Shown here in pieces: positions 1 through 48,187 of a stretch of DNA of 64,000 nucleotides. This DNA comes from Alphaproteobacteria bacterium (GTDB lineage: Bacteria > Pseudomonadota > Alphaproteobacteria > SHVP01). The stretch spans positions 13,573-77,572 of the forward strand of contig VGES01000010.1 in the NCBI GenBank assembly GCA_016869765.1, in the 5' to 3' direction. The notes beneath the pieces are model-generated. The model ran no database searches and had not been told where the DNA came from. It saw only the letters and a program-made list of their open reading frames with translations. The position numbers and the translations under genes were made by a program. Numbering within the stretch: the stretch's first letter is position 1; every line of letters starts with the position of its first letter.

Positions 1-901
1 GAAACCGCCGCGTCGCGCCCTGCCAGGTGAGGCGGGCGAGTTCCTCCTGCGGCGTGACGCCGCCCGGCACCACCTCGGCCGGATATTCGTAGCGTAGTTC
101 TTCCAGATCGAAGCGGCAGACGGCGGCGATCGCCGCGGTGCGCGCCACGGCCTCGGGGTAGTCGCGGAACAGTCGCGCCATCTCGGCGGCCGGTTTCAGG
201 TGGCGCTCGGCGTTGGGGAGCAGCCGGTAGCCGGCCTCGTCGATCGTGCAGTGTTCGCGGATGCAGGTGAGCACGTCCTGCAGCGCACGGCGTTCGGGCG
301 CGTGATAGTGCACGTCGTTGGTGGCGACGAGCGGCGTGCCGCACGCCTCGGCCAGCGCTGCCAGCAGCACGAGGCGACGGCGGTCATCACCGCGGTACAG
401 AAGACTCGCCGCGAGATAACTGCGCCCGGGAAACGCTGCAGCCACTTGACGCAGGTGTTGGCCGAAGGCGCTCGCGGGGCCGAGCACCGACGGATCGAAC
501 GCGCGTGCGGGATCGTCGAGCGCCTCGGGTGGCAAGGCGATGACGATCTGGCCCTCGCCGTAAGGGGGGAACTCGGACCACGCGAGGTGACACTCGCCCT
601 TGGGCGCGCGGCGCTTGCCCAAGGTGAGAAAACGGGTGAGCCGGCCGTAGGCGGCGCGGTCGGTCGGGTAGCAGAGGACGCTCGGCGCATCGGTGAAATC
701 GAGCCGGACGCCGACCACGAGACGGATGCCGGCTTTCGTGGCGGCGCGGTGGGCGCGAACGACGCCGCCCACCGAGTTGCGATCGGTGATCGCGAGCGCT
801 TTCAGCCCGAGCGCCGCCGCGGTCTCGGCCAGTTCGTCGGCGTGCGAGGCGCCGCGCAAGAAGCTGAAGTTGCTGGTGACCTGCAGCTCGACGTAGTCCA
901 A
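1..901 (-). CDS. dnaE2: Error-prone DNA polymerase DnaE2 (ImuC), N-terminal PHP-domain part; gene continues beyond the left edge
   Basis: Reverse-strand reading from TTG at 901 (GGAGG 4 nt upstream) gives (M)DYVELQVTSNFSFLRGASHADELAETAAALGLKALAITDRNSVGGVVRAHRAATKAGIRLVVG... This is the canonical DnaE2 PHP-domain N-terminus. The frame stays open to position 1, which explains its absence from the complete-ORF track. The 200..1027 + ORF is its antisense shadow. Confidence 0.9.
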   Translation of the reverse strand, partial: MDYVELQVTSNFSFLRGASHADELAETAAALGLKALAITDRNSVGGVVRAHRAATKAGIRLVVGVRLDFTDAPSVLCYPTDRAAYGRLTRFLTLGKRRAPKGECHLAWSEFPPYGEGQIVIALPPEALDDPARAFDPSVLGPASAFGQHLRQVAAAFPGRSYLAASLLYRGDDRRRLVLLAALAEACGTPLVATNDVHYHAPERRALQDVLTCIREHCTIDEAGYRLLPNAERHLKPAAEMARLFRDYPEAVARTAAIAAVCRFDLEELRYEYPAEVVPGGVTPQEELARLTWQGATRRF

Positions 902-918
902 GACGCCTCCCCGATTCA
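896..918. repeat. Degenerate third copy of the imuB-stop/dnaE2-start junction motif (about 17/23 matches to 6523..6545)
   Basis: Minus strand TGAATCGGGGAGGCGTCTTGGAC here versus TGAATCGGGCAGGGCTCATGACC after the imuB stop. The dnaE2 TTG start aligns with the second ATG of the MNRAGLMT leader ORF. Confidence 0.55.
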
Positions 919-1086
919 GCAGTGTGGTGTTTCGCGGCGCAGATCGAAGTCTTCGCGCGGGAAGAAGCAGGTCAAAAAGCGGATGTCGGCCCGGGGCGGT
1001 GGCTTCAACTCACGGGCCCGGAGATAGACCTCTTGGACGACGGCATCACTGCCGCGAATCGGCGGATCGGCGTCGGCCATCCTCAT
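916..1086 (-). CDS. Small ORF (56 aa, MRMADADPPIRGSDAVVQEVYLRARELKPPPRADIRFLTCFFPREDFDLRRETPHC) between P1 and dnaE2; possibly a remnant of a further paralog
   Basis: Its ATG (1086) overlaps the P1 stop as ATGA. A second ATG at 1080 sits 8 nt after GGAG. The stop at 916 lies immediately before the dnaE2 RBS. FLTCFFPRED..FDLRR weakly resembles the FLSIAFFPQGGQWWFRR motif of the paralog family. No TM segment. Confidence 0.3.
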   Translation of the reverse strand: MRMADADPPIRGSDAVVQEVYLRARELKPPPRADIRFLTCFFPREDFDLRRETPHC

Positions 1087-1859
1087 GGCTCCTCGGCGTC
1101 GTCCGGTTTGAGGTGCTCGTCGATCGGCCGCAGCACGCGCAATGCTTCGAACGGGACGCGGACCGGTTCGGGGCCGATCAACCAACGCGTCGTTCGGTCG
1201 TGATAGCGAGAGGCCCGAGCGGCAAAGCTGCCGTCATTGACGCAGTCCGCCCATTCTTCAGCCTCGATGGCGCAAAACTCCGCCCCGAAATCGACGACAC
1301 GACGAAACCACCATTGCCCGCCCTGTGGGAAAAACGCGATGCTCAGAAATCGCTCCCAACCGCAGAGGTATCCCAGATTCGCATGCTCCACGAGAACGCA
1401 GAACTTGAGGACGATCTCGCGGTCGCCGACCCGTGGTGCCCGATTTTCCGCGTAAACGGTGTCACGCTCGGGCGGCCACTGAACGTGCGCCGCGGTCACC
1501 ACCAAGTCTTCGAGCACGGCGTAGGCGACCATCGGATGGTCGCGATAAAAACTGTCTTCGTCTGTTGGCAATTCATCGATCGCACCAATCGCCCTGCATA
1601 CGGAAGGCCATTGCCTGAAGTGGCAGGCGACCCACGTGTCGATCAGACAGGCGGTCGTTTCAGTTTCGCCCAAGCAGGAGCTCGTCGTACCGAGCGGCGA
1701 AAAAATCCGATACGGACTTTCTGGCGTCCACACCGAACCGACGAACTCGGCGCGGGAACGAGCATCACCGATCAACACGCCGGCCAACCAAGCGACCAGC
1801 GTCGTCAGCATCAGCCCAACGATTCCGACGCCAGCGATTCTTGCGATTGGTGATGTCAT
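1083..1859 (-). CDS. Paralog P1: single-pass membrane protein with Cys-rich extracytoplasmic domain (putative immunity-like protein), 258 aa
   Basis: N-terminal hydrophobic helix IAGVGIVGLMLTTLVAWLAGVLI. Family motifs: WTPESPY, GTTSSCLG, ACLIDTWVAC, AYAVLE, LKFC, FLSIAFFPQGGQWWFRR, LRPIDEHLKP. Clear paralog of 3794..4609, 3006..3797 and 4623..5387. Confidence 0.75.
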   Translation of the reverse strand: MTSPIARIAGVGIVGLMLTTLVAWLAGVLIGDARSRAEFVGSVWTPESPYRIFSPLGTTSSCLGETETTACLIDTWVACHFRQWPSVCRAIGAIDELPTDEDSFYRDHPMVAYAVLEDLVVTAAHVQWPPERDTVYAENRAPRVGDREIVLKFCVLVEHANLGYLCGWERFLSIAFFPQGGQWWFRRVVDFGAEFCAIEAEEWADCVNDGSFAARASRYHDRTTRWLIGPEPVRVPFEALRVLRPIDEHLKPDDAEEP

Positions 1860-1867
1860 CGATCGTC

Positions 1868-2625
1868 CTAACCGCCCGCGTCGGCCGTCCGGCGGAACAC
1901 CGTCATAGGCGGGGACTGGACGGCCTCGAACGGAACCAAGCCGACGTGGGGTGACATGTCTCTGAGCTTCGATCCGGCCTGCCGGTCAATCTTCCGCGTC
2001 CGCGAGACGCATATCGCAGGTGAAGAACCATCCGGCGGTATGGTGTACCCAACCGCGATATTCCCAAAGGCCACCACGGCGGAAAAAAACGACACTCACG
2101 AAAACATGCCCTGGGACAGAAGTACCGTTCGAGGTCGGGTTTCATCCAACACAGCTTCAGTGTGACTTCGACGTCACCGGCGCGAGGCTTCTCGAACCAC
2201 GGCTCGAGTTTGTCGATCCGCATCCGGGCGCGAGGGACAACCATGCTCTGTTCAATCACCGCGTACGCCGTGAGCGTGCGTTGCTGCTCCTCGGGCTCAT
2301 ATTCCGGTTCGTAACCGAAGAACGCCAAGGCGCCGGGAGAGGACGGCAGTTGAATGGCGTCGCAGGCCGGCAACCACACCGCATTGGTACACGCCATCCA
2401 CGAAGCGATTGCACAGCGCAATGTTTGGGCACCCCCCACGCACGGGACGGTAGAAGCGGTCGCCGAAACCAATTCAAAACGACTTTTGGGCGTCCAGACG
2501 ACCTCCGGGTCGTTCACTCGCCAGCGATCATCCGGGCGCGTCGTCCAAACCGCGGCCGTGATCGCCGCGACGAACGCGACGATCACGACGACGAACCCAA
2601 CGACCTGCACCGAGCGACGTTTCAC
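1868..2625 (-). pseudogene. Paralog P2, disrupted by two frameshifts; closest to P5
   Basis: The GTG start at 2625 overlaps the stop of the truncated M23 ORF (GTGA). Frame 1 reads VKRRSVQVVGFVVVIVAF...WTPKSRFELVSATASTVPCVGGAQTLRCAIASWMAC...VEVTLKLCWMKPDLERYFCPRACF. Family homology continues in a second frame from about 2100 (VSVVFFRRGGLWEYRGWVHHTAGWFFTC), which stops at 1986-1988. It then continues in a third frame (SKLRDMSPHVGLVPFEAVQSPPMTV) to the stop at 1868. Track ORFs 1903..2658 and 1868..2095 are the pieces. Confidence 0.7.
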
Positions 2626-2939
2626 GGTTGCTCCGCCTGCCAGCGTTTGGTGAGCCATTCCCAGGGATCGAGCAACTTCAGCTTTGGTTTTGGTGTTTGA
2701 AGCTTGCCATCGGATCCGATGGTCGCCTCCGGCCGATCAACTTTCCAAACTTCGACGTGGACATGATTGATGGCACCCCGATACTCCTTGGCGACGCTGA
2801 GGTCCTCAACCACGCCTAAGGGAGTCTCGTGAGCCGTGACACGAAAGCTTGTCTTGTGGGCCGGCGATAGTGGCCCGACATCGGGCGTGTTTTTCCAGAT
2901 CGGCGCCAGCGACCCGGTCATGAGCCCTGCCCGATTCAT
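2622..2939 (-). pseudogene. Truncated M23/LytM-like peptidase copy (105 aa): leader MNRAGLMT.. fused to the last ~75 aa of the M23 domain; lacks the HxxxD motif
   Basis: SFRVTAHETPLGVVEDLSVAKEYRGAINHVHVEVWKV...KLLDPWEWLTKRWQAEQP aligns with SIRVIENVTPIGVVQDLDPKYPEIPNHVHVEVWKT...KLLKAWEWFSERWRSQQP of the full-length protein. The N-terminus equals the leader ORF found after imuB. Confidence 0.7.
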
Positions 2940-2967
2940 GGGAACAGGCCGTGCAGAAACCAGCGCG
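2916..2967. repeat. Direct repeat, 51/52 identical to 6523..6574 (imuB 3' end + stop + leader-ORF start)
   Basis: ggtcatgagccctgcccgattcatgggaacaggccgtgcag[a/g]aaccagcgcg is present at both sites. Weaker in-frame similarity continues about 40 nt further into the leader ORF (AxxWxNxPD). Confidence 0.9.
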
Positions 2968-3005
2968 CTGGCAGCTCGGTCACGTCCGCTTCGATTTGGC
3001 GGCCG
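2936..3005 (-). pseudogene. Orphan imuB 3'-terminal remnant (..GRQIEADVTELPARWFLHGLFP*)
   Basis: The reverse frame ending at TGA 2938..2936 reads ...ELPARWFLHGLFP*. The intact imuB ends ...DAASPRWFLHGLFP*. There is no upstream imuB body because the P3 stop is at 3006. Confidence 0.75.
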
Positions 3006-3797
3006 TTAGTCATCGGCGTTCCCCGAACCAGCGACGGAAAAACGATTCAGGACCGTCAGCGACTTAGGATCGACCCGTTCGAACGGCGGCCCGGACGGAT
3101 AACCGGGAATGCGGTTGTTGATGCGCATCGTCCGGGAAAACGACCGCTCCAGGTGAGTCCAACATTCCGGGTATTCCGGAGAGTAGATCTCGCACAGGAA
3201 ATCGCCGATCTGAACCGTCCAACCGCGATACACCCACGGTCCGCCGTCGCGGAAGAAAAAGACACTCAGCAGCCAATCGTTGACGCAACGATAGGTGTCG
3301 GTCTCATCGTCGATCTCCATCCGGCAAATCTTGACGATGATCTCGACATCGCCAGGTTTCGGGTAGGGTTCGTCGGGATAGCCGGTGAGGGCGGTGCGGC
3401 GGGCCGGCCATGCGACGCCCTTCTTCTCCAGCACCGCATAGGCGTAAATCACTGCGGGCGGATCGAGCGATTTCGTGTCCGGCGCGTCAACCGGGTCGTC
3501 CGCGCTGGGGTAGCGGATACTTCGGCACGCCGGCCGATGACCGAGCCAGTCGCAGGCCAGCCACGTATCCACAGCGCAGTCCAACGTGTGCGGTTCGCCG
3601 ATACAGCGGCTGGTTGCCCCTGATCGCGACAGGAGACGATAAGGGCTTTCCAGAGACCACGCGGTTCGGTGCGCCATCTTCGACAACAGCGCCTGGCTCC
3701 TTGGAATCTGTGCCAACACGCCCCAACCGATAGCCGCCACGAGCGCCGCGAGAACGAACGTCGTGCCGATGACCACGGTCCGGCCGCGAATCGTCAT
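3006..3797 (-). CDS. Paralog P3: single-pass membrane protein with Cys-rich extracytoplasmic domain, 263 aa
   Basis: TM helix VVIGTTFVLAALVAAIGWGVLA. Motifs: WSLESPY, GATSRCIG, LDCAVDTWLAC, AYAVLE, GDVEIIVKIC, LLSVFFFRDGGPWVYRGW. The start ATG overlaps the P4 stop (ATGA). Confidence 0.75.
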   Translation of the reverse strand: MTIRGRTVVIGTTFVLAALVAAIGWGVLAQIPRSQALLSKMAHRTAWSLESPYRLLSRSGATSRCIGEPHTLDCAVDTWLACDWLGHRPACRSIRYPSADDPVDAPDTKSLDPPAVIYAYAVLEKKGVAWPARRTALTGYPDEPYPKPGDVEIIVKICRMEIDDETDTYRCVNDWLLSVFFFRDGGPWVYRGWTVQIGDFLCEIYSPEYPECWTHLERSFSRTMRINNRIPGYPSGPPFERVDPKSLTVLNRFSVAGSGNADD

Positions 3798-4609
3798 CGT
3801 GGCCCCGCTTCTTGCGCTGGCTTCAACCGCTCATCGATGGGTCGCAGAAGCGATCGCGCCGCCTCCGACAATCGGACCGGACGCGACCCGAGGAGCCAAC
3901 GGCGGTCCTCGCCCAGTTCGTCGAGTCGACGCATGGTCCCCGTGAAACTGCCCCCACCCGCGTCGCGACAGTCTTTGGGGACCGTCGCTTCTGGAGGACA
4001 CGTGTGCTCCCACGAAAAAACCAAGTCGAGCTTGCGACGGAAATGCCAGCGATCCCCTACACGAAAAAACGCCACGCTGACGAAGTCGAGGTGTTGGCAA
4101 ATGTGCCCCAGACCTGGCCATTCGGAGAGCCCGCAGATCTTGAGGGCGACCTCGACGTCCCCGGTTTGAGGCAGCTGCACCGGGAGAAAGGGTTCACGGA
4201 CGAACTTGGCTGGAAGGACCACACGTCGGCCATCGTTCACCGTCATCTGTTCGAGGATTTCGTAGGCGACGACCGGATCGGGATCGCGCCATTGCCAGTC
4301 GAAATACAACGATCGACCGGGAAACGGCGGGTGAGCGATCGCGGCACACGGTGTCGGCCAGCGGGTGTTGTGGCAGGCAACCCAGGTATCGACAGCACAG
4401 GCGAGCGTCCGGGAGTCGCCGAGACAGGGGCTCGTCGCACCGAACGTGGCGAACAGCTGATAGCGGCTCGTGGGCGTCCACATCACGCCGAGAAATGGAT
4501 CACGCCGCGTCACATCGGCCATCAACGCCACAGCGAACCAGGCGATGACCCCCGTGAGGGCGATCGCCAGAGCGCTGACCAGCGCAACAGCCCGATTGGA
4601 ATGATGCAT
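3794..4609 (-). CDS. Paralog P4: single-pass membrane protein with Cys-rich extracytoplasmic domain, 271 aa
   Basis: TM helix AVALVSALAIALTGVIAWFAVAL. Motifs: WTPTSRY, GATSPCLG, LACAVDTWVAC, AYEILE, GDVEVALKIC, FVSVAFFRVGDRWHFRR, LLRPIDERLKP (closest to P1). Confidence 0.75.
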   Translation of the reverse strand: MHHSNRAVALVSALAIALTGVIAWFAVALMADVTRRDPFLGVMWTPTSRYQLFATFGATSPCLGDSRTLACAVDTWVACHNTRWPTPCAAIAHPPFPGRSLYFDWQWRDPDPVVAYEILEQMTVNDGRRVVLPAKFVREPFLPVQLPQTGDVEVALKICGLSEWPGLGHICQHLDFVSVAFFRVGDRWHFRRKLDLVFSWEHTCPPEATVPKDCRDAGGGSFTGTMRRLDELGEDRRWLLGSRPVRLSEAARSLLRPIDERLKPAQEAGPR

Positions 4610-4622
4610 CGCGGTTGACCGA

Positions 4623-5387
4623 TCAGGGCTCGGGGAACGAAGTCATCTTCATGGACCGAACGAATTCCCCCGGGATCCACGGAAGATGCGCTGATGGATC
4701 GAAGGATGGCCGCGCGCCGTAACGAAGAATGCGAGACGCGGTCGCCCCAAAAAAATAATGGCACGGCTCGAGATTGGGCTCGCAATCGGCATGCTCATCG
4801 TAATAGTGCCCGCGAAAGACCCAGCGGCCCTCGTGATGGAAAAAGACGATGCTGAAGGTCCGGGGCCCATCGACGCAACGATGCCCCTCGGGCTCGGGTT
4901 CCATCGAGCACGACATCACAGTGATTTCGACGTCACCGACCTGGGGTTTTTCCAACTGATCGTTGACGACGTATAGGGGCGTGCGGGCCGTGATCAGCCT
5001 GCGATCCAATACGGCATAAGCCGTCACCCGCCGTTCCAATTCGGCCTGATACTCCTCGTCATCGAGATTCCAGTCGCGAAATACGATGTAGCGAATCGAT
5101 TGACAGGCGAAATCTCGTTCCGGAAAGGCGCATGCTATCCACGTCGCGATGGCGCACCGTAGGCTTTCCGCACCACCGACACAGGGGATCGTCGAGGCTG
5201 AATAGGATACGAGTTCGAATGGACGGGCCTTGTTTGAAAGGAGACCGATTTGGTCTCGTTCCCGACCTGCGTTAGATCGACCGGAATCATTAGGAGGTAA
5301 CGTTTCGACCGTTACGGTGATTGCCGCGATGAGTGCGACAACTATGCCGACGACAAGCCCAACGGCCTGAAGAGGATGACGCGTCAT
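4623..5387 (-). CDS. Paralog P5: single-pass membrane protein with Cys-rich extracytoplasmic domain, ~254 aa; directly coupled to the M23-like gene
   Basis: The ATG at 5387 overlaps the M23-gene stop (ATGA). The track ORF start at 5426 is probably too long. Sequence: MTRHPLQAVGLVVGIVVALIAAITV..., then PFELVSYSASTIPCVGGAESLRCAIATWIAC, AYAVLD, GDVEITVMSC, FSIVFFHHEGRWVFRG. Confidence 0.75.
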   Translation of the reverse strand: MTRHPLQAVGLVVGIVVALIAAITVTVETLPPNDSGRSNAGRERDQIGLLSNKARPFELVSYSASTIPCVGGAESLRCAIATWIACAFPERDFACQSIRYIVFRDWNLDDEEYQAELERRVTAYAVLDRRLITARTPLYVVNDQLEKPQVGDVEITVMSCSMEPEPEGHRCVDGPRTFSIVFFHHEGRWVFRGHYYDEHADCEPNLEPCHYFFGATASRILRYGARPSFDPSAHLPWIPGEFVRSMKMTSFPEP

Positions 5388-6418
5388 GGTTGCTGCGACC
5401 GCCAACGCTCGCTGAACCACTCCCACGCCTTCAGCAACTTTTTCTTTGGCCCTGTTTTCCAGACTTCGACGTGCACGTGGTTGGGGATCTCCGGGTATTT
5501 TGGATCGAGGTCTTGGACGACCCCGATTGGCGTCACGTTTTCGATGACGCGAATGCTATCTCCCAAGTCCAAGATGTTTCTGAATCCAAGCGTCGCCGGA
5601 TCAACGTAGAAGATCTTTATCTCGTGACCATCGTCGGTCTCGATCTTGACGCCGCAGTAAGGCGAATTGTCTCCATAGGGAGTGGCCTTCGAGAGTTTGC
5701 CACTTATAGGGGCGTACAGAATTTTCCCTGCTTCGACCAACAAGTCGTCACCTTGGTGGCTGTAGGGCTCGTTGCTCTTGGAACGAGTCCGTCGATCGCC
5801 AACTTTGCCGCCACCCCACCGCGGGTGCCATCCACGTCGTTCGGTGTCGCGAAGATGAACCGCCGTTCCGGGTGCCGGGGGTGGAATTTGTGGAACAGGA
5901 TGGACTGTGGGTTGCCTCGCGGGTGAGCGTTTCTGGGGTGGGGTCGGTTTTTCGATCGGCACGGCACTGACCGGCGCGCGCGTCGGCGTCGGAACAGCGG
6001 CCGGGGGACCGGCTTGGGCAAGCTCAATCGGGCGCTCGCGCTCTTCGCCCGCGGTGATCGGCGCTGGGGCGCCGGGCGGGTCGAGCGCGTTTGAGGCCAA
6101 CGTTTCGGGCGCAGGCGGCGCCACCGCCGACAACCCGCGATCGGGATCGCGCACGTCGATCCCGAGATTGGTGAACTCCTGGCCCCAGCGGGTTCCTTGT
6201 TCGGATTGCGGATCGTCACGCGCCGTGAGGTACAGCGCCCGGCCCTGTTGCCAGCGCCAGAACTCGACCGTGTCCGATTGGTGCGGGTTGGCTGCACCGG
6301 TGGCCCATTGGCCGGGCCATTCGGGCGGCACCACGTCGCCGATCAACGGAGGGTTTTCAGGGTCGTTCGCGGCCGTGGCCGGATCGACGGGGGGGAACGG
6401 GTACGAACCACGCGTCAT
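5384..6418 (-). CDS. M23/LytM-family peptidase-like protein (putative peptidoglycan-hydrolase toxin): unknown N-domain + Pro-rich linker + C-terminal M23 domain, ~344 aa
   Basis: C-terminus reads RRGWHPRWGGG...YSHQGDDLLVEAGKILYAPISGKL...IGVVQDL...NHVHVEVW. This matches the M23 signature: R-x-HP pre-motif, H-x-G-x-D (HxxxD), G-x-x-[IV]-x-A-x-x-x-G-x-[LV], HxH. The likely start is the ATG at 6418 with AAGGAG 7 nt upstream, not the track start 6457. No signal peptide or TM helix is evident. Confidence 0.75.
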   Translation of the reverse strand: MTRGSYPFPPVDPATAANDPENPPLIGDVVPPEWPGQWATGAANPHQSDTVEFWRWQQGRALYLTARDDPQSEQGTRWGQEFTNLGIDVRDPDRGLSAVAPPAPETLASNALDPPGAPAPITAGEERERPIELAQAGPPAAVPTPTRAPVSAVPIEKPTPPQKRSPARQPTVHPVPQIPPPAPGTAVHLRDTERRGWHPRWGGGKVGDRRTRSKSNEPYSHQGDDLLVEAGKILYAPISGKLSKATPYGDNSPYCGVKIETDDGHEIKIFYVDPATLGFRNILDLGDSIRVIENVTPIGVVQDLDPKYPEIPNHVHVEVWKTGPKKKLLKAWEWFSERWRSQQP

Positions 6419-6546
6419 GAGGAAGCTCCTTGGTTGGAGAATCCTCCCCCGCACCATCGTGCGGCCCTGCCCTTACTTATAAACCGATCAGGCACGTTTT
6501 CCCAGAACGAGGCGAAGACCCAGGTCATGAGCCCTGCCCGATTCAT
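6415..6546 (-). CDS. Leader ORF (43 aa, MNRAGLMTWVFASFWENVPDRFISKG...) bridging imuB and the M23-like gene
   Basis: Its ATG overlaps the imuB stop (ccATGAat) and its stop overlaps the M23-gene ATG (ctcATGAcg). The first ~22 codons are conserved with the N-terminus of the truncated copy at 2939 (MNRAGLMTGSLAPIWKNTPDV). Whether it is translated is unknown. Confidence 0.4.
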   Translation of the reverse strand: MNRAGLMTWVFASFWENVPDRFISKGRAARWCGGGFSNQGASS

Positions 6547-6574
6547 GGGAACAGGCCGTGCAGGAACCAGCGCG
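6523..6574. repeat. Direct repeat, partner of 2916..2967 (imuB 3' end/junction)
   Basis: See 2916..2967. Contains the last ~10 imuB codons, the stop, and the leader-ORF start. Confidence 0.9.
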
Positions 6575-8150
6575 GCGATGCGGCGTCGGGCGCGTAGAGG
6601 CCGTTGCGGAACAGCCAGAAGCGGGCGCCATCGTCGTCCTCGACGCGGAAATAGTCGCGGGTCTCGCCACGATCGAACAGCGTGGTGGTCGTCGGTCGCC
6701 ACCACTCGGGCGCGATGCGTTCGGGCCCCTCGGCCGTGTGCACGCGGTGCAGCACCGTGCGCCAGCGAAACAACCGCGGCGGCTCGTCGGGCACCGGCGC
6801 CACCACCTCGATCGGCTCGGGTTGGGACAACAGCGCCAGCGGCCGTTCGCGGTTGACGAACCACGGCCGCCCCGGCTGCCAGCGGCGGCGCGGCCCATCG
6901 CCCGCAGCCAGCACCGGGATCGACACCGAGGCGCGTTCGGGGATGAAACTCTCGGACGGCGCCAGGCGCACGACATCCGCCTTGCCGAGTCGATTGGCCA
7001 GGCGATCGACCAGCGGATCGAGGCTTCCCGCCGGCACGCCGCGGCGACGTTTGAGCGCGAGTTGCGCGGCGGCCAGCGGTTCGACCACGGCCGCCTCGAC
7101 CGCCAGCGCGTCGATGCCGAAGCCCGGATCGATGCTCGACAAGTGCTCGTCGAGCAGGCGAAAGAGATGCGTCGCCGTGCGCACCGGCGCGCTGGTGCCG
7201 ATGCGCACCGACGGTCGTTCGCCATCGACGCGATAGACCTGGAAGACGAGCCGCCGCAGCCCCAATTCGTCCTGCTGCAACCGGTAACAAAGCCGCGTCA
7301 ACAACCGGCGCGCCGCCTCGGCGATGTCCTCGGCGCGGCCGATCGGCTCGGCGAACGGCATCACCTCGCGCAGGGGGGCGACGAGCGGACGCGGCGAGAT
7401 CGGCTCGCGCACGCGGCCCAACGCCTGATCGACGCGACTCAAGAGCGTCTCGCCGAAACGGCTCACCAGGGGCCCGCGCGGCAGGTCGAACAGATCGCCG
7501 GCGCGACGCAGGCCCAAGCGTTCGAGCCCGGCGATCATCGTCGTGGGCAGACGCAACGCCGCGATCGGCAAGGGCGCCAGGAACGTCCGCGCGCCGCCCG
7601 GTGCGACGAGGCTCGTGGTCTTGGCCGTGAAGCGTGCCGCCGCCCAGGCCACGCCAAGCGTGTCGGCGACCGCCGCGCGGGCGGCAAAGCCGCGCCAGCG
7701 CAGCCGGGTCACGAGATCCTCGATCAGCGCCGCTTCGCCGCCGAACAGGTGGGCGCAACCACTGACGTCGAGCCACAGCCCGGCGCCGGCGATCGTCGCC
7801 TCGGGGTTCCCGTCGAGCGCGACCCAGGGCGTGTAACGCGTCGCCCAGTCGGCGAGTTTCTCCAGCGCGGCGATGTCGGCTGCCGGATCGGCGAAGGCCA
7901 CCGCGACGTTGGGCCAGATCGCGCGCACGTCGGTGAGCGGCATTCCGGGCAACACGCCGTGACTGGCGAGCTCATGATCGGCCGCGGCGACGCGCAGCGT
8001 GTTCTGTTCGCGAACGACCGTGACTTGGATTCGGCCGGGAGCGCGGGCGCCGTCAGGCGACGGCGCGCCCGCCAGCCGGTCGATCGCGAAGTTCGGCAAC
8101 CACAGCGAGACCACCCGGGTCTCGCCGGTACGCGGGGTCGTGGGGGTCAT
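6543..8150 (-). CDS. imuB: ImuB, Y-family polymerase-like subunit of the SOS mutasome
   Basis: 535 aa. N-terminus ...RVVSLWLPNFAIDRL and C-terminus PRWFLHGLFP are typical of ImuB. It lies downstream of imuA. The long + strand ORF 6558..8285 and the - ORF 6415..7776 are shadows. Confidence 0.9.
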   Translation of the reverse strand: MTPTTPRTGETRVVSLWLPNFAIDRLAGAPSPDGARAPGRIQVTVVREQNTLRVAAADHELASHGVLPGMPLTDVRAIWPNVAVAFADPAADIAALEKLADWATRYTPWVALDGNPEATIAGAGLWLDVSGCAHLFGGEAALIEDLVTRLRWRGFAARAAVADTLGVAWAAARFTAKTTSLVAPGGARTFLAPLPIAALRLPTTMIAGLERLGLRRAGDLFDLPRGPLVSRFGETLLSRVDQALGRVREPISPRPLVAPLREVMPFAEPIGRAEDIAEAARRLLTRLCYRLQQDELGLRRLVFQVYRVDGERPSVRIGTSAPVRTATHLFRLLDEHLSSIDPGFGIDALAVEAAVVEPLAAAQLALKRRRGVPAGSLDPLVDRLANRLGKADVVRLAPSESFIPERASVSIPVLAAGDGPRRRWQPGRPWFVNRERPLALLSQPEPIEVVAPVPDEPPRLFRWRTVLHRVHTAEGPERIAPEWWRPTTTTLFDRGETRDYFRVEDDDGARFWLFRNGLYAPDAASPRWFLHGLFP

Positions 8151-8892
8151 GCGTCATGCTGGCGCCTGGGCGCCACTCCAGTTGCCACGCGCGGGACGGA
8201 CCGCCGCGGCAATAATCGAGATCGACCTGCCAACGCGGGGCATGGTCGGAACCGGTGCGGGCCGGCGACACGCGCCAGCGGGTGAGCGCGGCGGTGGTCG
8301 CGGCGCTGGCGGTCGTGACGCCGACGCGCGGCAAACGATCGAGCAGGAAGGCGAGCGCGCCGGTGGTTTCGGCCGCGAGTTGCAGCCGCCGGTTGGCGGT
8401 GAGGCTGACGCGTGCGGCTTCGCCGACGACGGCGGCAACCGCGGCGCTGCGCAGCCCCTCCTCCATCGCCCACAGCATGTCCTGGGTGTTGCGGGCCCGG
8501 GCGATAACCAGGCGATCGGGGGCGATGCCCCAATGGGCGAGGCCAGCGCCGTACAGCTCGCCCGCTTCGTTGGCCGCGTGTGCGGTCTGGCACCACAGCA
8601 CCTGACCGCCGTCGGCCACCACCGCCGACAACACCGCCGCCAGAAATCCGAACGCCGCCTGGCCGCCGGTCATTTCGTGCAAGGCGCCACGCGGCAGGCC
8701 GCCCCACGGCAAGCCCGGATCGAGCCCCGGCGCCAGCGGCAGGGCCGCGTGCCGGCCCTGGCCCCGCTCGATCGCGCCGATGCTGGCCCGCAGCCGGGCG
8801 AGCGCCTGCCCTCGCTCCGCTCGGTCGCGGACCGGGGCGGGCGGCAGAGATGCCAATTCGCCCCTGTCCTGCAGGGTTGCCGCCAACGCCAT
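8053..8892 (-). CDS. imuA: ImuA, RecA/SulA-like SOS mutagenesis protein
   Basis: 279 aa. ...GLPWGGLPRGALHEMTG...AAFGFLAAVL...VLWC is the ImuA-type degenerate RecA-fold core. It is the first gene behind the LexA boxes and overlaps imuB by 98 nt. Confidence 0.85.
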   Translation of the reverse strand: MALAATLQDRGELASLPPAPVRDRAERGQALARLRASIGAIERGQGRHAALPLAPGLDPGLPWGGLPRGALHEMTGGQAAFGFLAAVLSAVVADGGQVLWCQTAHAANEAGELYGAGLAHWGIAPDRLVIARARNTQDMLWAMEEGLRSAAVAAVVGEAARVSLTANRRLQLAAETTGALAFLLDRLPRVGVTTASAATTAALTRWRVSPARTGSDHAPRWQVDLDYCRGGPSRAWQLEWRPGASMTHDPHDPAYRRDPGGLAVVAELRDRPAGGRAVA

Positions 8893-8916: not shown

Positions 8917-8942
8917 GTTCTGTAATTGTTCTTGTTATGTTC
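8917..8942. promoter_or_regulatory. Triple alphaproteobacterial LexA-type box GTTC-N7-GTTC-N7-GTTC upstream of imuA
   Basis: GTTCtgtaattGTTCttgttatGTTC lies 25-50 nt upstream of the imuA start, in a locally AT-rich stretch. It matches the GTTC-N7-GTTC direct-repeat SOS box known from Alphaproteobacteria. Confidence 0.75.
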
Positions 8943-10278: not shown

Positions 10279-10578
10279 CTATTCCTCCGGCAGCCGGCTA
10301 CGGACATCCATTCTCTGGTGAAGAACACGGAGAACCAGGATCGATGTCCCGGTCTCCCGGAAGAAAATGACGTGCCTTCCGCAATCCAAACTTCGCAATC
10401 CACCCGCGACATCATCACGCCGCCGAGCGGCACCTGTGTTCTCACGCAATCGAAACAGGCATTGGCGCAAGGTCAAAAGGTATTGCCGACGCTGGGCGTC
10501 GCCCCACTGCTCTATCGTGTAGCGTGATATTTCTCTGAGGTCGCGTCTCGCCGAGTCCGCGACAACGAGCTCTTTCAT
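10279..10578 (-). CDS. parE: ParE/RelE-family type II toxin
   Basis: 99 aa. ...ARRDLREISRYTIEQWGDAQRRQYL...VIFFRETGTSILVLRVLHQRMD is typical ParE. It overlaps the upstream antitoxin by 4 nt. Confidence 0.8.
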   Translation of the reverse strand: MKELVVADSARRDLREISRYTIEQWGDAQRRQYLLTLRQCLFRLRENTGAARRRDDVAGGLRSLDCGRHVIFFRETGTSILVLRVLHQRMDVRSRLPEE

Positions 10579-10835
10579 CGATCGACGAATAGAGCTTCAA
10601 AATCCTCCGGACTCTCGACCCGAGTTCCCCTACCCGCCTCGATATCGGCGTCGCCCTTCGCCAGTTCTTCGCGAAGCCGGGCGACCTTCAGCGCCTGCAC
10701 TTCGTCATGCTCTTGCAACAGGCGCAGCGCCTCTCGTACCACGTCACTTTCGTCGCGATACAAGCCCGATTGAACCTTCTGGCGGACGAGATCTTCGAGT
10801 TTTGGTGTGAGCGAGACTTTCATGTTGCTGACCAT
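10575..10835 (-). CDS. parD: ParD-type (ribbon-helix-helix) antitoxin
   Basis: 86 aa. VSLTPKLEDLVRQKVQSGLYRDESDVVREALRLLQE is the ParD4/CopG-like motif. The start may instead be the ATG at 10823. Confidence 0.8.
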   Translation of the reverse strand: MVSNMKVSLTPKLEDLVRQKVQSGLYRDESDVVREALRLLQEHDEVQALKVARLREELAKGDADIEAGRGTRVESPEDFEALFVDR

Positions 10836-34776: not shown

Positions 34777-36324
34777 TCAGGTCTTCCTGGCTTCTTCGGC
34801 AAAGACGTCGCGGTAAACCGCCTCGATTCGTCGGGCTTCATCATCCGTCAGGGAGGCGAGTTCCTTCTCGCGCCGCGCCTTTGGGATACTCCCGCCGTTC
34901 TGGCGCATGAACATGATGATGTCCTGCGCCAATCGATCGGGCATCTCGATTGTTTCCATGATGCGCCGCTGCGCTTCGTCATGCCGCCGCAAGTAATCGA
35001 TCTCCTGCGGCAGGTCATGATCGACCGTCCGTTCGACGCAGGTGTAGAGGAACTCCGCTGCTTCCGTACCGTCGAAGTAGCGATATAGATCGGACGTATC
35101 GTTCAGGACTTCGACATTGCGGTTCTCCGTCGGCCGCCATTCGATGAAATCCATCAATGGCCCGGAGTGGTTCTTCAGGATGCGGCCATAGTCCTCGATG
35201 CGGGTGAGCATCACCGATGAAACCGGGAATACCATGCCGGGCGGTGTGTAGCCTCGTTCGGCAAGAACATGATGAATCAGGCAGCGGTGAACGCGTCCGT
35301 TGCCGTCCTGATAGGGATGAACATACACAAAGCCAAAGGCCGTGGCCGCGGCCTGCAGGACGGCGTCGAGTCCGCTTTCGCGCATTCGCTCGTTGGCGGC
35401 CAGCAAGCCGGCCACCAACGAATCGAGGTCGTCCGGACGCGCTCCGATGAATTCCGGCAGAGGATCGCCATCGTGATCGCGTTCTCCGAGGAACACGCCA
35501 TCCGGGCGCAGGCCCGGGCGGATGAATCGCGTGTCCTCGATCAAGACGCTGTGGAGGCGCCCGAGTTCGTCCAGGCTGAGTTTGCTCTTGCCCGCCTGCA
35601 GGACGGCGCGACCCCACCGCTCCAGCCGGCTGCGCGGCGGCCGCTCACCTTCGATCTCGAAACTGGCGCGGCTGTCAGCGAGCAGCAGAAAGCTGGCCGC
35701 CCGGGCAACGAGGCGCGCTCCGGTCCGGCCGATCGTTTCGGCGGCCCTCTGCGCCAAACCGGCTTCGACGAATTTTTCCAGTTTTTCGGTCCGGCGGATG
35801 ACCGGGCAATAGGACCCGGAGCCGAGCAGATTGTCTCTGACCCGATGGCGCCGGGAGAGAATCGCTTTGCCGGTGAAATACGACTTGGGATCGAGCGCCT
35901 CGACGGCGGTCACGGCAGGCGCGTCTTCGATATCGAGCTGTTTCCCGGTCAGGCGTTCACAGAAAAACCAGACTCGCCGGGTCAGCGTGCCGGTCGGGGC
36001 GGATTTGACGAAGTTTTCGAGATATGGGGCCGGAACGGACTCGAAGGCGCGCTTCAGAATGAGGAGGTCGATGGGCTCATGGCGCAGCGCGAATCCGAGA
36101 TGGTCCTCGAACCGGTTTCCGGGAGCATAGCGCTTGTCAAGAATGCGCCAGTTGCCGTCGGTCCGTCGGCTTCCGCGAACGTGACTATCGGATACGCAAC
36201 TCGGCCTTCTGACCGGAGCCTTCAGGCCGAGGGCATGGACGATCGCCGCCCACCCGACAAGGCTCGTCCCGGCAGGGACAACAGTGCCTTGAAAGGTCGA
36301 CGGGGGGTCGAGGCGAAGCTCCAT
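34777..36324 (-). CDS. Fic-family protein (adenylyltransferase-like), 515 aa
   Basis: Fic motif HPYQDGNGRVHR (HPFx[D/E]GNGR). ATG at 36324 (MELRLDPP...). The track N-terminal extension with repeated IFD is translation of the upstream repeat region. Confidence 0.8.
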   Translation of the reverse strand: MELRLDPPSTFQGTVVPAGTSLVGWAAIVHALGLKAPVRRPSCVSDSHVRGSRRTDGNWRILDKRYAPGNRFEDHLGFALRHEPIDLLILKRAFESVPAPYLENFVKSAPTGTLTRRVWFFCERLTGKQLDIEDAPAVTAVEALDPKSYFTGKAILSRRHRVRDNLLGSGSYCPVIRRTEKLEKFVEAGLAQRAAETIGRTGARLVARAASFLLLADSRASFEIEGERPPRSRLERWGRAVLQAGKSKLSLDELGRLHSVLIEDTRFIRPGLRPDGVFLGERDHDGDPLPEFIGARPDDLDSLVAGLLAANERMRESGLDAVLQAAATAFGFVYVHPYQDGNGRVHRCLIHHVLAERGYTPPGMVFPVSSVMLTRIEDYGRILKNHSGPLMDFIEWRPTENRNVEVLNDTSDLYRYFDGTEAAEFLYTCVERTVDHDLPQEIDYLRRHDEAQRRIMETIEMPDRLAQDIIMFMRQNGGSIPKARREKELASLTDDEARRIEAVYRDVFAEEARKT

Positions 36325-36343
36325 AGGTATTCCGGGATTCTTG

Positions 36344-36458
36344 TCGAAAATTGATTTAATCGAAGAACTTCTATCGAAAATGACAATAGTCGATCCAGCG
36401 TCGAAAATCACTCACGAATCTCGAATATGAGCTCAACCATGCTGAAAAAGTCGAAAAT
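36344..36458. promoter_or_regulatory. AT-rich region with iterated TCGAAAAT motif upstream of the Fic gene
   Basis: Perfect TCGAAAAT at 36344, 36374, 36401 and 36451. Degenerate copies TCGAAGAA (~36358), TCGATCCA (~36390) and TCGAATAT (36421). Spacing is about 20-30 nt. The region is strikingly AT-rich for this genome. Confidence 0.5.
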
Positions 36459-42032: not shown

Positions 42033-42898
42033 TGCACCGGCTGCTCCGCATCGAGAAACGCGCGGATGATCGGCGCCACCTCGCGGTAGCGAAACAACAG
42101 CATCTCCCGACCCCATTGCGGCAGGTCGATCATCTTGCCGTTGCGAATGTAGGCGGCCGCCCGCGCCGTCGGCGCCCACAAATCGTCGCGCGCGTGCAGC
42201 AGCAGCAGCGGCTGGGTGACCTTGGGCAGGTTCTCGGCATGGAGATACGAAAACGCCGCGTGGTGGCCGTGATAGGCGAGCGGTCCCGCCCGAAGGCCTT
42301 CGACGAATTCGAGTTCACGCACCGTGATCGGGACCTCGGGCGGCAGGTTGTCCCTTGCCCAACCCCAGCGCACCATGACGTAGCGACCGTCGTCATCGGC
42401 GGTTTCGACAGCGTCGTCGAACGCGGTGAGGGCCGCCAGTTCGGCTGCGCTGTACACCGGCGCGGCGTTCAACACCACGCGCCGCACCTGCACGGGTCGT
42501 TGGATCGCGACCTCGACGGCCGTTTTCGACCCGGTGTGATCCCCCATCACGTCGATGTCGCGAAACCCGAAATAATCGATCAGTTCGCCCATGGCCGCGG
42601 CAAAATCGGCGATCGACGGCGGGTGCGGCAGGGCATCGGAATTGCCGAAGGCCGGCGTGTCGGCGACAATCGCGACGCGATCGCGACCCAATTCGGCGAT
42701 CAGGCCCTCATAGCAGCGCCCGGACGACCCCGTCTGATGAAACAGGAACAGCGGCCGGCGCTCGGACGGCGATGCAGGTTTCGCGATCCGGTAATGAAGC
42801 TGACCATAGCGGTAGTCGGCGTAGCCGCGACGGACCGTCGACGGCGCACGCCAGAGCAATTCGCGGCGCCGTTGATCGGCGCTCCGCGCGTCAACCAT
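42029..42898 (-). CDS. Alpha/beta-hydrolase-fold protein, single domain, GDHTG elbow (H1)
   Basis: RRGYADYRYGQLHYR, LFLFHQTGSSGR, DTPAFGNSD, VMGDHTGSKTAVE. N-type paralog of the didomain genes upstream. Confidence 0.7.
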   Translation of the reverse strand: MVDARSADQRRRELLWRAPSTVRRGYADYRYGQLHYRIAKPASPSERRPLFLFHQTGSSGRCYEGLIAELGRDRVAIVADTPAFGNSDALPHPPSIADFAAAMGELIDYFGFRDIDVMGDHTGSKTAVEVAIQRPVQVRRVVLNAAPVYSAAELAALTAFDDAVETADDDGRYVMVRWGWARDNLPPEVPITVRELEFVEGLRAGPLAYHGHHAAFSYLHAENLPKVTQPLLLLHARDDLWAPTARAAAYIRNGKMIDLPQWGREMLLFRYREVAPIIRAFLDAEQPVQ

Positions 42899-44585
42899 CG
42901 AGGAACCGACGGATCGTCGGCACAACCTCGCCGAAGTGGGTCTGGAACATACCGAATCCGATATGCGGCAGGTCGACGACGGTGACGTTCTTGATCAGCG
43001 GAACGGCGCGGTGCGTCATCGGAATGACGAGGTCCTTGCCCGGCATCAGGAGGAGCACGGGCTGCCCCAGAGCGCGCAGCGCAGGGGCGGGGTCATAGCC
43101 GACCGCCGCTTCCGGCCCCCACCACAGTCCGAGAGGTCCACCCCGCAGGGCCTCGCAGAACAACGTCGAGACGACATCGATCGGCGCCTGGCCCGACTTC
43201 AAGCGTGCCGCCCGCTTCCAAATCTCGGCCAGGTGAGTGCCATCGGCACGCGTCGTCACGGGCTTCGCCCGTGACAGCATGCTGCGGCGCTCCTCATCGG
43301 TGTACACCGCGCAGGTGTTGAGCACGATTTTGCGGATCAGCTTCGGACGTTCGGCGGCCAGCATCACCGTCAGCTTGGCGCCGGTATGATCGCCGAGGGC
43401 ATCGATCGTCGTGTAGCCCAACCTGTCGATCGCCTCCGACACCGGGCGCATCAAGTCGGCCAACGACGGTTGCTTGGCCGGACGGTCGCTCTCGCCGAAG
43501 CCCGGCGTGTCGACGGCAATCGCGACGCGATCGGTGGCGAGCGCGACGGCGGCATCTTCATAGACCCGACCGGAAAGCGGGCTGATGTGGAACAAGAACA
43601 GCGGCGGCTTCGTGCTCGGCTTTGCCGGCTCGGCGATGCGCAGGTGCAAGAAGCCGGTCGAGACCTCGACGAAGCGTTTTCGGATCGCCGCCGCCTTGGC
43701 GATCCGGGGCTTGGCCGGAGCCGGGCGGGCCGGTGACGCGGAAACCGACGCGGGCGGCTGATCGAAAAACTCGCGCGCAATCTTCCCGAGTTCCGTGGCG
43801 TGGAGCGAGATCGCTCCCATTCGGAACGTCGGCAGTTCCATGAGCTTGCCGTTGCGCAGGTGCGGCACCGTCCGGTGGGTGTGCTCGCGAAAACCGTCGT
43901 CGGGGCAGAGCAGCAGGATCGGGTGGGCAATGTCCTTGAGCGCGTCCGTCACGGCATATTGGAACGAGGCGTTATGGCCGTACCAGATGACGTCGCCGCC
44001 CCGCTGCATCTCGGCGAAGTCACGATTGAGCAGCTCGATCGGTGAACTGTCCGCGTACAAGCGCTTCAGGCGCACGAAATGTTCGACGTGGTGGTGGCCG
44101 TCCTCCGGCGGCGCATGAGGCTTCTCGCGCTCGATGATCTGCTTCTGCATCGCCTGCTGCTCGGCGGTGAACACCATCGCCGCATTGAGCATGAGCCGCC
44201 CGATCTGCTTCGGGCGTTGCCGGGTCAGTTCCATCGCGACCTTGGTGCCCGTGTGATCGCCGATGAGGTCGACGACCTCGAGCCCGAGCGTGTCCATCAC
44301 ATCGCCCATCGCGGCGGCGTATTCCTCGATCGTCGGCGGCGCGGGCGGTGGCGCCGAATCGCCGAATCCGGGGGTGTCGGGCGCAATGGCAAAGCGGTCG
44401 CGCCCGAGGTCGGCCACGAGGTGCTCCCATGGCCGCCCGGACGACGGGCTTTGGTGGAACAACAGCACTGGGCGTTTCTTCGATTTGGGGTCGCCCGCCG
44501 CACGATAGTGAATCTGACCGAAACGGCCATCGAGGTAACCCCGGCGCACCGTATCGGGGCGGCGCCACCAGTCGATTTCAGTCAT
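42891..44585 (-). CDS. Didomain alpha/beta-hydrolase-fold protein, two GDHTG elbows (H2)
   Basis: 564 aa. N-domain: FHQSPSSGR, DTPGFGDSA, LIGDHTGTKVAME. A Pro/Ala linker follows. C-domain: FHISPLSGR, DTPGFGESD, ALGDHTGAKLTVM. Confidence 0.75.
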   Translation of the reverse strand: MTEIDWWRRPDTVRRGYLDGRFGQIHYRAAGDPKSKKRPVLLFHQSPSSGRPWEHLVADLGRDRFAIAPDTPGFGDSAPPPAPPTIEEYAAAMGDVMDTLGLEVVDLIGDHTGTKVAMELTRQRPKQIGRLMLNAAMVFTAEQQAMQKQIIEREKPHAPPEDGHHHVEHFVRLKRLYADSSPIELLNRDFAEMQRGGDVIWYGHNASFQYAVTDALKDIAHPILLLCPDDGFREHTHRTVPHLRNGKLMELPTFRMGAISLHATELGKIAREFFDQPPASVSASPARPAPAKPRIAKAAAIRKRFVEVSTGFLHLRIAEPAKPSTKPPLFLFHISPLSGRVYEDAAVALATDRVAIAVDTPGFGESDRPAKQPSLADLMRPVSEAIDRLGYTTIDALGDHTGAKLTVMLAAERPKLIRKIVLNTCAVYTDEERRSMLSRAKPVTTRADGTHLAEIWKRAARLKSGQAPIDVVSTLFCEALRGGPLGLWWGPEAAVGYDPAPALRALGQPVLLLMPGKDLVIPMTHRAVPLIKNVTVVDLPHIGFGMFQTHFGEVVPTIRRFLDG

Positions 44586-46269: not shown

Positions 46270-46353
46270 TCTCCCCCCGGAGTTGCCCGGGCACGAACGG
46301 CCCGGTTGCCCAGCATAGTAGCCGACCCGTTCGGGCCGACGAAGGGAATCGCG

Positions 46354-48093: not shown

Positions 48094-48187
48094 TGTCCCT
48101 CCGTTCGAGGCAGTATGAACGGCGTTCACGACGGTGCAACCCGGGCTTGACGCTACGGCGGGCGGCAGCGAGAACTGGCGATATACG

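Follow-up and report, generated by a model that had tools for sequence, protein, structure and literature searches.

An imuB-dnaE2 junction repeat borders two M23-P gene cassettes, candidate effector/immunity modules, inside the mutasome operon of an alphaproteobacterium

The stretch of DNA analysed here, referred to throughout as the window, comprises 64,000 nucleotides (nt) of contig VGES01000010.1 (positions 13,573 to 77,572 of the forward strand) from assembly GCA_016869765.1 of an uncultured alphaproteobacterium, and it carries the mutasome genes in the order imuA-imuB-dnaE2 behind a LexA (SOS) box. The last two of these genes are not adjacent; they are set apart by a 5640-nt gap, with the inserted DNA placed within the first ~8 codons of dnaE2. 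Over most of its length the insert has a guanine-plus-cytosine (GC) content of 54-65%, compared with 70-75% in imuA, imuB and dnaE2, and it consists of two units, each headed by a copy of the sequence that spans the imuB stop codon, with a third, degenerate copy abutting the dnaE2 start. All genes of the array lie on the minus strand; its open reading frames (ORFs) and other features are given below from the 5' end of the operon.

8917 to 8942, minus strand: tandem LexA (SOS) box, GAAC-N7-GAAC-N7-GAAC, 25-50 nt upstream of the imuA ATG
8053 to 8892, minus strand: imuA (NCBIfam ImuA_translesion, E=1.5e-19)
6543 to 8150, minus strand: imuB, inactive Y-family polymerase subunit (Pfam IMS and IMS_C), ending in PRWFLHGLFP and TGA; metagenome gene callers place its start at 8114
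6523 to 6574, minus strand: junction copy 1, with imuB tail, ATGA stop/start overlap and leader head; weaker homology continues to 6487
6415 to 6546, minus strand: 43-codon leader ORF (MNRAGLMTWVFASFWENVPD...), its ATG overlapping the imuB stop and its TGA overlapping the M23 ATG
5384 to 6418, minus strand: M23 effector-like protein of 344 amino acids (aa), with a novel N-terminal part joined through a proline-rich linker to a LECT2-like M23 domain at the C-terminus
4623 to 5387, minus strand: P5, with an N-terminal transmembrane (TM) helix and a cysteine-rich periplasmic domain; ATGA overlap with M23
3794 to 4609, minus strand: P4, a P paralog; TM helix and NTF2/cystatin-like alpha+beta domain in its AlphaFold2 (AF2) model
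3006 to 3797, minus strand: P3, a P paralog that closes unit 1
2936 to 3013, minus strand: orphan 25-codon ORF MTNGRQIEADVTELPARWFLHGLFP, ending in ARWFLHGLFP before its stop; its ATG lies within the last P3 codons
2916 to 2967, minus strand: junction copy 2, differing from copy 1 at one of 52 positions; weaker homology continues to 2880
2622 to 2939, minus strand: leader' fused in frame to a truncated M23, with the C-terminal ~75 M23 residues and the HxxxD half deleted
1868 to 2625, minus strand: P2, a pseudogene interrupted by two or more frameshifts and most similar to P5; it overlaps the truncated M23 by GTGA
1083 to 1859, minus strand: P1, intact, closest to P4 (38% aa identity)
916 to 1086, minus strand: small ORF of 56 codons; ATGA overlap with P1, and a TGA where the imuB stop would have sat ancestrally
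896 to 918, minus strand: junction copy 3, matching at 17/23, TGA-ATCGGGGAGGCGTC-TTG; the ancestral dnaE2 head, with CTG in place of ATG
1 to 901, minus strand: 5' part of dnaE2 (PHP domain); the gene is intact in contig L089, with 1122 aa

The two full copies of the junction agree at 51 of their 52 positions (6523-6574 and 2916-2967), the sole mismatch being A/G at 2957/6564 on the plus strand, and they share an exact 41-nt core that occurs twice in the 64 kb, against 0.00 occurrences expected from 100 shuffles. Beyond the 52 nt, ungapped similarity extends to 88 nt at 84% (2880-2967 versus 6487-6574). On the coding strand the repeat reads ...CGC TGG TTY CTG CAC GGC CTG TTC CCA TGA ATC GGG CAG GGC TCA TGA CC, i.e. 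eleven codons of the imuB end, its stop codon and 7-8 further codons, which translates into the ImuB end RWFLHGLFP, a TGA stop and, from an ATG overlapping that stop, the opening MNRAGLMT...; in copy 2 this amounts to 33 nt of imuB tail and 19 nt of dnaE2 head. The third copy matches the 23-mer TGAATCGGGCAGGGCTCATGACC at 17 of 23 positions, a score reached on the two window strands by the three junction sites only (one unrelated site attains 16), and the 9-mer TGAATCGGG is found exactly three times in the window, every time at a junction. Read in the dnaE2 frame, copy 3 runs (C)TG AAT CGG GGA GGC GTC TTG GAC TAC GTC GAG CTG CAG and yields L-N-R-G-G-V-L-D-Y-V-E-L-Q, versus M-N-R-A-G-L-M-T in the leader at copies 1 and 2. 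Bounded by these junctions are unit 1 (6545 down to 2968; leader, M23, P5, P4 and P3) and unit 2 (2939 down to 919; the fusion of leader' with truncated M23, then P2, P1 and the 56-codon ORF). The first-pass annotation of this DNA had proposed the near-identical repeat, its degenerate copy before the dnaE2 TTG, the partition into two units and the nature of their boundaries as imuB-tail/dnaE2-head junctions, and all of these stand, as do the coordinates; the last is made more precise by the reading frame of copy 3 and by the stop/start overlap in relatives described below.

Upstream of copy 2 the imuB body is absent, and the repeat there closes the orphan 25-codon ORF, whose upstream part the same annotation had tentatively traced to a different imuB allele. 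That attribution was rejected: when the C-termini of 79 ImuB proteins are used as a profile, the match to the orphan ORF is confined to RWFLHGLFP, inside the 52-nt repeat, and the FWLFRxGLY motif conserved just before this type of end in ImuB is missing from it. With the same profile, no ImuB similarity was found in the small ORF before dnaE2. As a remote side possibility, the 25-residue product ending in RWFLHGLFP might be made and compete with ImuB for the latter's partner. A structured RNA or DNA element, or an attC-like site, at the junction was likewise considered and rejected, since its RNA and DNA folds are no better than those of shuffled sequences (z-scores from -1.6 to +1.6, insignificant) and are not common to the copies.

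Could the repeat stem from faulty assembly, or be a generic element of the repetitive extragenic palindromic (REP) type? Short-read de Bruijn assemblies do break at it, with k=31 Logan contigs stopping inside the repeats at 6534, 6552 and 2927, as a true two-copy sequence is expected to make them do. However, the identical layout recurs at 99.96-100% identity in independent assemblies from at least 16 samples, namely six from JGI (3300020083, 3300020193, 3300020197, 3300020198, 3300020200 and 3300020220), one from ENA (ERZ27247963) and nine from Logan (SRR/ERR runs); separate JGI and ENA contigs cover copies 1 and 2 in unchanged order, and at least five additional contigs traverse copy 2 in the canonical order P3, junction, truncated M23. 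An assembly artefact, which the first-pass annotation had named as a possible objection together with a REP element, is therefore ruled out by the recurrence of the array in so many independent samples, and the many dispersed copies expected of a REP element contrast with a sequence confined to three junctions in 64 kb and with 0 matches in scans of viral and JGI contigs. Taken together, either origin is close to impossible. One further contig of the locus (L105, Logan ERR14822410_25046) is a variant or noisy version at 99.7% identity, with both P1 and dnaE2 broken up into two ORFs apiece.

What the repeat represents becomes clearer from the imuB loci of 80 other alphaproteobacterial species, 77 of which also hold dnaE2. 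At the protein level the window imuB is 38-50% identical to theirs, and because even the closest reach only 45-50%, the source lineage is without a close sequenced relative. From the imuB stop to the dnaE2 match the median gap in the 77 relatives is 8 nt (below 100 nt in 68, above 300 nt in four only); an NTGA stop/start overlap is present in 61, with the overlapping start in frame with dnaE2 in 47, and a homolog of the leader, the M23 protein or the P proteins between imuB and dnaE2 was found in none of the 80 loci. Since most relatives have this overlap and none has the cassette genes, the repeated unit is the ancestral imuB-3'/dnaE2-5' junction, and the first ATG of the leader is the ancestral dnaE2 start codon. 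The present dnaE2 start must be the TTG at 901, 14 nt past the TGA of the small ORF, and GGGGAGG in copy 3 is now its Shine-Dalgarno sequence.

Other DNA has entered the same interval elsewhere. Two of the closest imuB relatives (loci L005 and L006) have a FitA-type ribbon-helix-helix (RHH) antitoxin and a PIN toxin between the two genes (L005:6078-7215, L006:4994-5740; GC 0.49-0.55 versus 0.70-0.77 in imuB), around which a search for a junction duplication found none, and a metagenome-assembled genome of Rhodospirillaceae carries there a 211-aa ORF (L034:11659-12315) with a weak match to an IS200-like Y1 transposase (E=0.008). Selfish or addiction-type modules therefore seem to land at the imuB-dnaE2 junction repeatedly.

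Within the insert, ATGA or GTGA overlaps join imuB to the leader, the leader to M23, M23 to P5, P4 to P3, the orphan ORF to leader', the truncated M23 to P2 and P1 to the small ORF. The box upstream of imuA is a tandem version of the alphaproteobacterial SOS motif GTTCN7GTTC, which is how the Caulobacter SOS box is listed (PMC9578287). A promoter scan gave no promoter-like match on the coding strand of the insert, and terminator-like matches are in no excess over chance. Given the orientation of the operon, the stop/start chain and these two negative results, the cassettes are probably co-transcribed with the imuA operon, from its LexA-controlled promoter, on DNA damage.

The two units are collinear paralogs, with aa identities of 43% between M23 and truncated M23, 35% between P5 and P2 and 38% between P4 and P1. 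At the nucleotide level their best segments are 70-81% identical and the leader part adjoining the junction is ~64% identical (23/36), versus 98% at the junction itself. Unit 1 is intact in the window. In unit 2 the truncated M23 should be inactive, because its HxxxD half is deleted, and this decay, together with the frameshifted P2, is present in every assembly, the P2 sequence being invariant. The low GC of the cassettes points to foreign origin and horizontal acquisition, and the simplest account of their order would make unit 2 the older resident and unit 1 the later arrival.

Why should 52 nt have stayed nearly identical between units whose genes have diverged this far? One conceivable answer is that leader, M23 and two P genes were duplicated in tandem in situ, and that the junction was afterwards kept or made identical by short-tract conversion from the resident imuB end or by selection for a re-initiation signal. 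The shared gene order of the paralogous units would follow naturally from such an event, as would the outcome that no donor or alternative cassette was found anywhere searched, all assemblies having the one array. Yet the junction stands at 98% beside ~64% in the adjoining leader and at most 81% in coding sequence; conversion needs flanking homology, of which there is none upstream of 2967; selection would have no significant or shared junction structure to maintain, and copy 2 has no ImuB function to conserve. A duplication in place is thus improbable.

The interpretation of the cassettes depends on what their genes encode. The 344-aa protein of unit 1 has no predicted signal peptide, and its N-terminal ~100 residues are without detectable relatives. 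Its C-terminal domain matches LECT2, an M23-fold protein, at E=7e-6 and has the zinc/catalytic motifs HxxxD (H221-Q-G-D-D225) and HxH (H314-V-H316). In the AlphaFold model, where the predicted local distance difference test (pLDDT) is 60-85 in the M23 domain and poor elsewhere, that domain retrieves LytM, zoocin A and Csd1/2 in Foldseek at probability 1.0 (4zyb, 5kvp, 5j1k); LytM and zoocin A are within the top three fold matches, LECT2 being the best match by sequence. Among 5.8 billion proteins, a word-indexed search retrieved no more than two homologs, of which one is a frameshifted allele of the effector itself, and tblastn of the effector and of P0029 (the P-like protein of locus L110) against plasmids gave no match. 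These features suggest a peptidoglycan peptidase of an effector-like kind, for which we infer both export and a toxic role.

The P proteins of the window are 27-38% identical to one another, each with an N-terminal TM helix and several conserved cysteines; in P5, P4 and P3 the helix is followed by an extracytoplasmic cysteine-rich domain. Among 1.84 billion representatives, full HMMER detected 103 relatives, all without a Pfam match, which are either secreted single-domain proteins of 160-230 aa or carry 2-4 tandem domains, have signal peptides or TM anchors and share the motif ATSxCIGxPxTPLCAVETxxAC...LC. When the effector, the P paralogs and an alignment of 45 P sequences served as queries in word-index searches, nearly all matches were the window's own proteins. 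Pfam, NCBIfam and PADLOC recognised none of the P proteins, nor did they recognise the leader, the small ORF or the N-terminal domain of the effector. The AF2 model of P4 (pLDDT 77) shows a TM helix and an alpha+beta domain whose PDB neighbours are all NTF2/cystatin-like but weak (E>=0.013, target-normalised TM-score <=0.54). NTF2-like immunity proteins (of the Imm-NTF2 type, with an alpha+beta cone fold) are said to have been described by Zhang and colleagues in 2012. With their membrane anchors and periplasm-facing domains, the P proteins would be the partners that neutralise the M23 enzyme.

Genomic contexts of distant P-like genes, eight in number, were examined. In one (L110/L111) the P-like gene is preceded, at a distance of 23 nt, by an M23 gene without signal peptide, with an IS3 transposase adjoining; over 154 residues the M23 product shares 33% identity with the window effector (E=2e-13), and it clears the Pfam threshold at 41.4 bits. 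In another (L114, 3289-5588) the order is M23 (206 aa), P-like gene, 5'-truncated M23 fragment, P-like gene, the truncated M23 being 49% identical to the intact one and lacking the HxxxD half. About 1 kb upstream of this module lies a FemAB_like gene; enzymes of the FemABX type are the immunity factors of lysostaphin and zoocin. A third context (L098, 9932-13712) has four P-like paralogs around a 320-aa PG_binding_1 (weakly PG_binding_3) protein, with MltA close by. Three contigs (L099/L100 and L115) place P-like genes in phage-like regions with a prohead protease, a head-tail connector and an SU10 adaptor, so that the P domain is also carried by prophage-like or gene transfer agent (GTA)-like regions; L112 and L113 have neither an M23 neighbour nor phage-like genes, and L097 is too short to judge. 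The M23-P pair thus appears to be a module that recurs at two loci unrelated to that of the window, one of them (L114) again with an intact and a truncated copy.

Position 5934, in an AAA run of the linker, was compared in twelve assemblies besides the window. Six have lost one A there (JGI 3300020193, 3300020197 and 3300020200; SRR7990525, SRR7008010 and SRR7052762); the other six, like the window, are intact. The frameshift yields products of 237 and 119 aa in five assemblies, and of 199 and 118 aa on the 5'-truncated contig of SRR7052762, and it separates H221/D225 from the remaining domain, leaving the P genes unchanged in all assemblies compared. Loss of the enzyme while its partners are kept fits an effector/immunity pair better than a housekeeping function.

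This observation bears on a second alternative, in which the M23 enzyme and its membrane partners form a damage-induced module for envelope remodelling or autolysis that acts on the producer itself, the repeat still being a recombination scar. LytM-type factors commonly work with membrane partners, as this proposal would have it; the M23 protein has no signal peptide and there is no secretion system nearby; and P-like genes also occur beside a peptidoglycan-binding protein and in phage-like regions. Against it stand the frameshift allele just described, found in six assemblies with intact P genes, the paralog arrays with a truncated enzyme gene beside intact partners, and the second locus (L114) with the same layout, all of which are typical of toxin/immunity rather than housekeeping systems. 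We therefore regard a self-directed module as unlikely.

A third alternative concerns how the units came to lie where they do. The junction might belong to a site-specific cassette system, integron-like, in which the core TGAATCGGG serves as an att-like site for circles that lack an integrase, the recombinase being encoded elsewhere. Such a system would account for the identity of the 9-nt core at all three boundaries and its absence from the rest of the 64 kb, for the direct repeats that bound each unit exactly and, perhaps, for the other inserts at imuB-dnaE2 in relatives (FitA/PIN, IS200-like). It might also account for contig L004 (positions 1-420; Logan SRR7008010_1984672), where the P3 3' end with the copy-2-type base runs through the junction into leader 1 and M23, a join that would be expected of an excised 3.6-kb circle or of a unit 1 in tandem. 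Neither the window nor the part of the contig beyond dnaE2 on its downstream side encodes an integrase or a transposase, however; the junction forms no attC-like hairpin, the toxin-antitoxin inserts of L005 and L006 have no duplicated junction, and the viral and JGI contig scans lack the junction sequence. All this makes a dedicated site-specific system rather improbable. It is equally doubtful, if conceivable, that the junction is a reusable docking site, from which cassettes are excised or amplified by junction-junction recombination under RecA and the SOS response and at which they re-enter before older ones. Were that so, the locus would be an integron-like array with expression and shuffling both tied to DNA damage through the mutasome operon.

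The reading that we prefer, at a probability of about 60%, is that effector/immunity-like modules were added sequentially by recombination anchored on the junction, of which the repeat is the scar. In the ancestral state the stop of imuB overlapped the start of dnaE2 (ATGA), an arrangement that most alphaproteobacteria have. Two homologous cassettes, each led by a copy of the junction, would have entered the first dnaE2 codons, the downstream one being older and decayed and the upstream one younger and intact; the younger would have recombined within the junction, its point of entry marked by the near-identity of copies 1 and 2. This could have come about by homology-facilitated illegitimate recombination anchored in imuB, in the manner of the displacement seen in Rhs loci and type VI secretion system (T6SS) arrays, or by single-crossover (Campbell-type) integration of a circular unit with one junction copy; both routes yield the same final structure and are not separable from sequence alone. 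Each cassette would supply a signal-less LECT2-type M23 peptidase and membrane-anchored, cysteine-rich P proteins that neutralise it, and dnaE2 would still be expressed at the end of the translational chain. The locus has much of what such a history should leave behind: an effector gene followed, through the M23/P5 ATGA, by candidate immunity genes whose products (P5, P4, P3) are extracytoplasmic and so in the target compartment; an orphan module with a 5'-truncated effector (2622-2939) and its immunity genes, the P2 pseudogene and P1; and, in copy 2 of the junction, a retained fragment of the recombination anchor. A peptidase without export signal next to a periplasm-facing partner has the topology classically associated with peptidoglycan-hydrolase effector/immunity pairs, and the intact-plus-truncated layout, found again at an unrelated locus, is the mark of module displacement known from Vibrio cholerae T6SS arrays and from Rhs/CDI orphans. 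The analogy with displacement arrays drawn at first pass thus gains support from the decay of unit 2, from paralogs at no more than 81% beside a junction at 98%, and from the L114 array.

Several observations weigh against sequential addition. The check proposed at first pass, whether other strains carry other cassettes bounded by this junction, gave a negative answer: the same array was present throughout, and no empty site, single-cassette or alternative-cassette allele was seen among the assemblies found, so that there is no population evidence for a recent insertion; nor did the 80 related genomes contain a donor locus or another imuB-dnaE2 cassette. Among contigs with the truncated M23, none had a unit-1 deletion allele in which imuB passes through the junction into that gene. 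The 64 kb and the known flanks hold no recombinase, secretion system or lysis gene, no linked delivery machinery (T6SS, CdiB, the type IV secretion system (T4SS) and others) was found, and Pfam assigned 20 further large ORFs of the window to housekeeping or other non-secretion families, apart from seven without a match. The junction pattern had 0 matches in viral contigs (one scan) and 0 in JGI metagenome contigs, the latter a weak negative because that collection evidently lacks the source samples, the JGI contigs that carry the junction being reachable by exact-protein look-up. One protein-pattern scan of the JGI metagenome contigs gave no further M23-P module; the two genes for secreted LECT2-like M23 proteins that it did retrieve lie beside neither P genes nor imuB/dnaE2 and are uninformative. 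As for the proteins, the effector stays below the Pfam PF01551 gathering score (12.4 bits versus 28.7), its model is of low confidence outside residues 220-344, and some P-like genes lack an M23 neighbour and are found in phage-like or housekeeping surroundings. Finally, the k=31 assembly behind contig L004 is fragmented, and the contig could be a chimera that arose by way of the exact 41-nt repeat.

Comparable layouts are known from systems in which modules displace one another. In the T6SS arrays of V. cholerae an intact module comes first, with older immunity genes and effector remnants behind it, and the proposed mechanism is one-sided homology with an illegitimate join that pushes old modules downstream (Kirchberger et al. 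2017, PMC5361080). The window array is alike in having an intact effector/immunity set followed by retained remnants; it differs in its anchor, which is the imuB 3' end with the dnaE2 start and not a secretion or effector gene, and in its other protein families, the lack of a T6SS nearby and the lack of observed module polymorphism from strain to strain. Orphan modules of Rhs and contact-dependent growth inhibition (CDI) loci keep a short conserved upstream piece that is the recombination anchor, the downstream modules being truncated (Poole et al. 2011, PMC3150448), and a C-terminal displacement model is attributed to Jackson et al. 2009, as cited in PMC5361080. Here too a piece of the anchor is retained and the downstream module is truncated and partly decayed, but the piece comes from an unrelated host gene and not from the toxin's own conserved core, and the effector is a free-standing protein of 344 aa rather than the C-terminal end of a very large delivery protein. 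SOS-regulated bacteriocin operons, those of colicins and pyocins, have been reviewed (PMC9578287); they resemble the window array in placing a signal-less toxin and one or more immunity genes behind a LexA promoter (in our case a predicted one), and are unlike it in that the array has no dedicated promoter or lysis gene and encodes an M23 peptidase instead of a pore-former or nuclease.

With lysostaphin, zoocin A, LytM and LECT2 the effector shares the M23 fold and the HxxxD/HxH zinc site. Unlike the M23 bacteriolysins, it has neither a signal peptide nor a cell-wall-targeting domain, its N-terminal 100-residue domain is new, and the putative immunity proteins would be periplasmic and NTF2-like, not modifiers of the cross-bridge of the FemABX type. 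As in islands at tRNA and tmRNA genes and in integron arrays, direct repeats of the target end bound the units, the target genes are intact and entry appears promoter-proximal; unlike integrative elements and integrons, the locus has no integrase that could be found, no attC-like structure and no mobility genes. What is new in comparison with known displacement arrays is the anchor (a stop/start junction of the host), the location (an SOS mutasome operon) and both protein families.

Three further features of the window, all on the minus strand, are recorded here in their own right. A ParD antitoxin/ParE toxin pair (10279-10835; Pfam E=2e-7 and 2e-17) lies where GC drops locally to 0.59, ~1.4 kb upstream from the promoter of imuA. 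Three consecutive large alpha/beta-hydrolase paralogs of 564, 563 and 623 aa, the middle one with an added thioesterase domain, occupy 42891-48225, and a 544-aa protein with a Fic/DOC domain is encoded at 34777-36411.

If the addition of modules at the junction holds, then conflict modules can colonise the interior of a core stress operon and leave the operon unbroken. By copying the operon's own stop/start junction they would preserve translational coupling, and they would gain colicin-like, damage-inducible expression without a promoter of their own. It would also define a previously unnamed gene pair, a signal-less LECT2-type M23 protein with a periplasmic cysteine-rich NTF2-like partner, at three unrelated loci; with an intact copy followed by a truncated one at two of the three, the pair is a candidate for a new family of peptidoglycan-targeting effectors and immunity proteins. 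The apparently recurrent landing of modules between imuB and dnaE2 would, in turn, bear on the evolution of the mutasome cassette and on how the level of DnaE2 is set.

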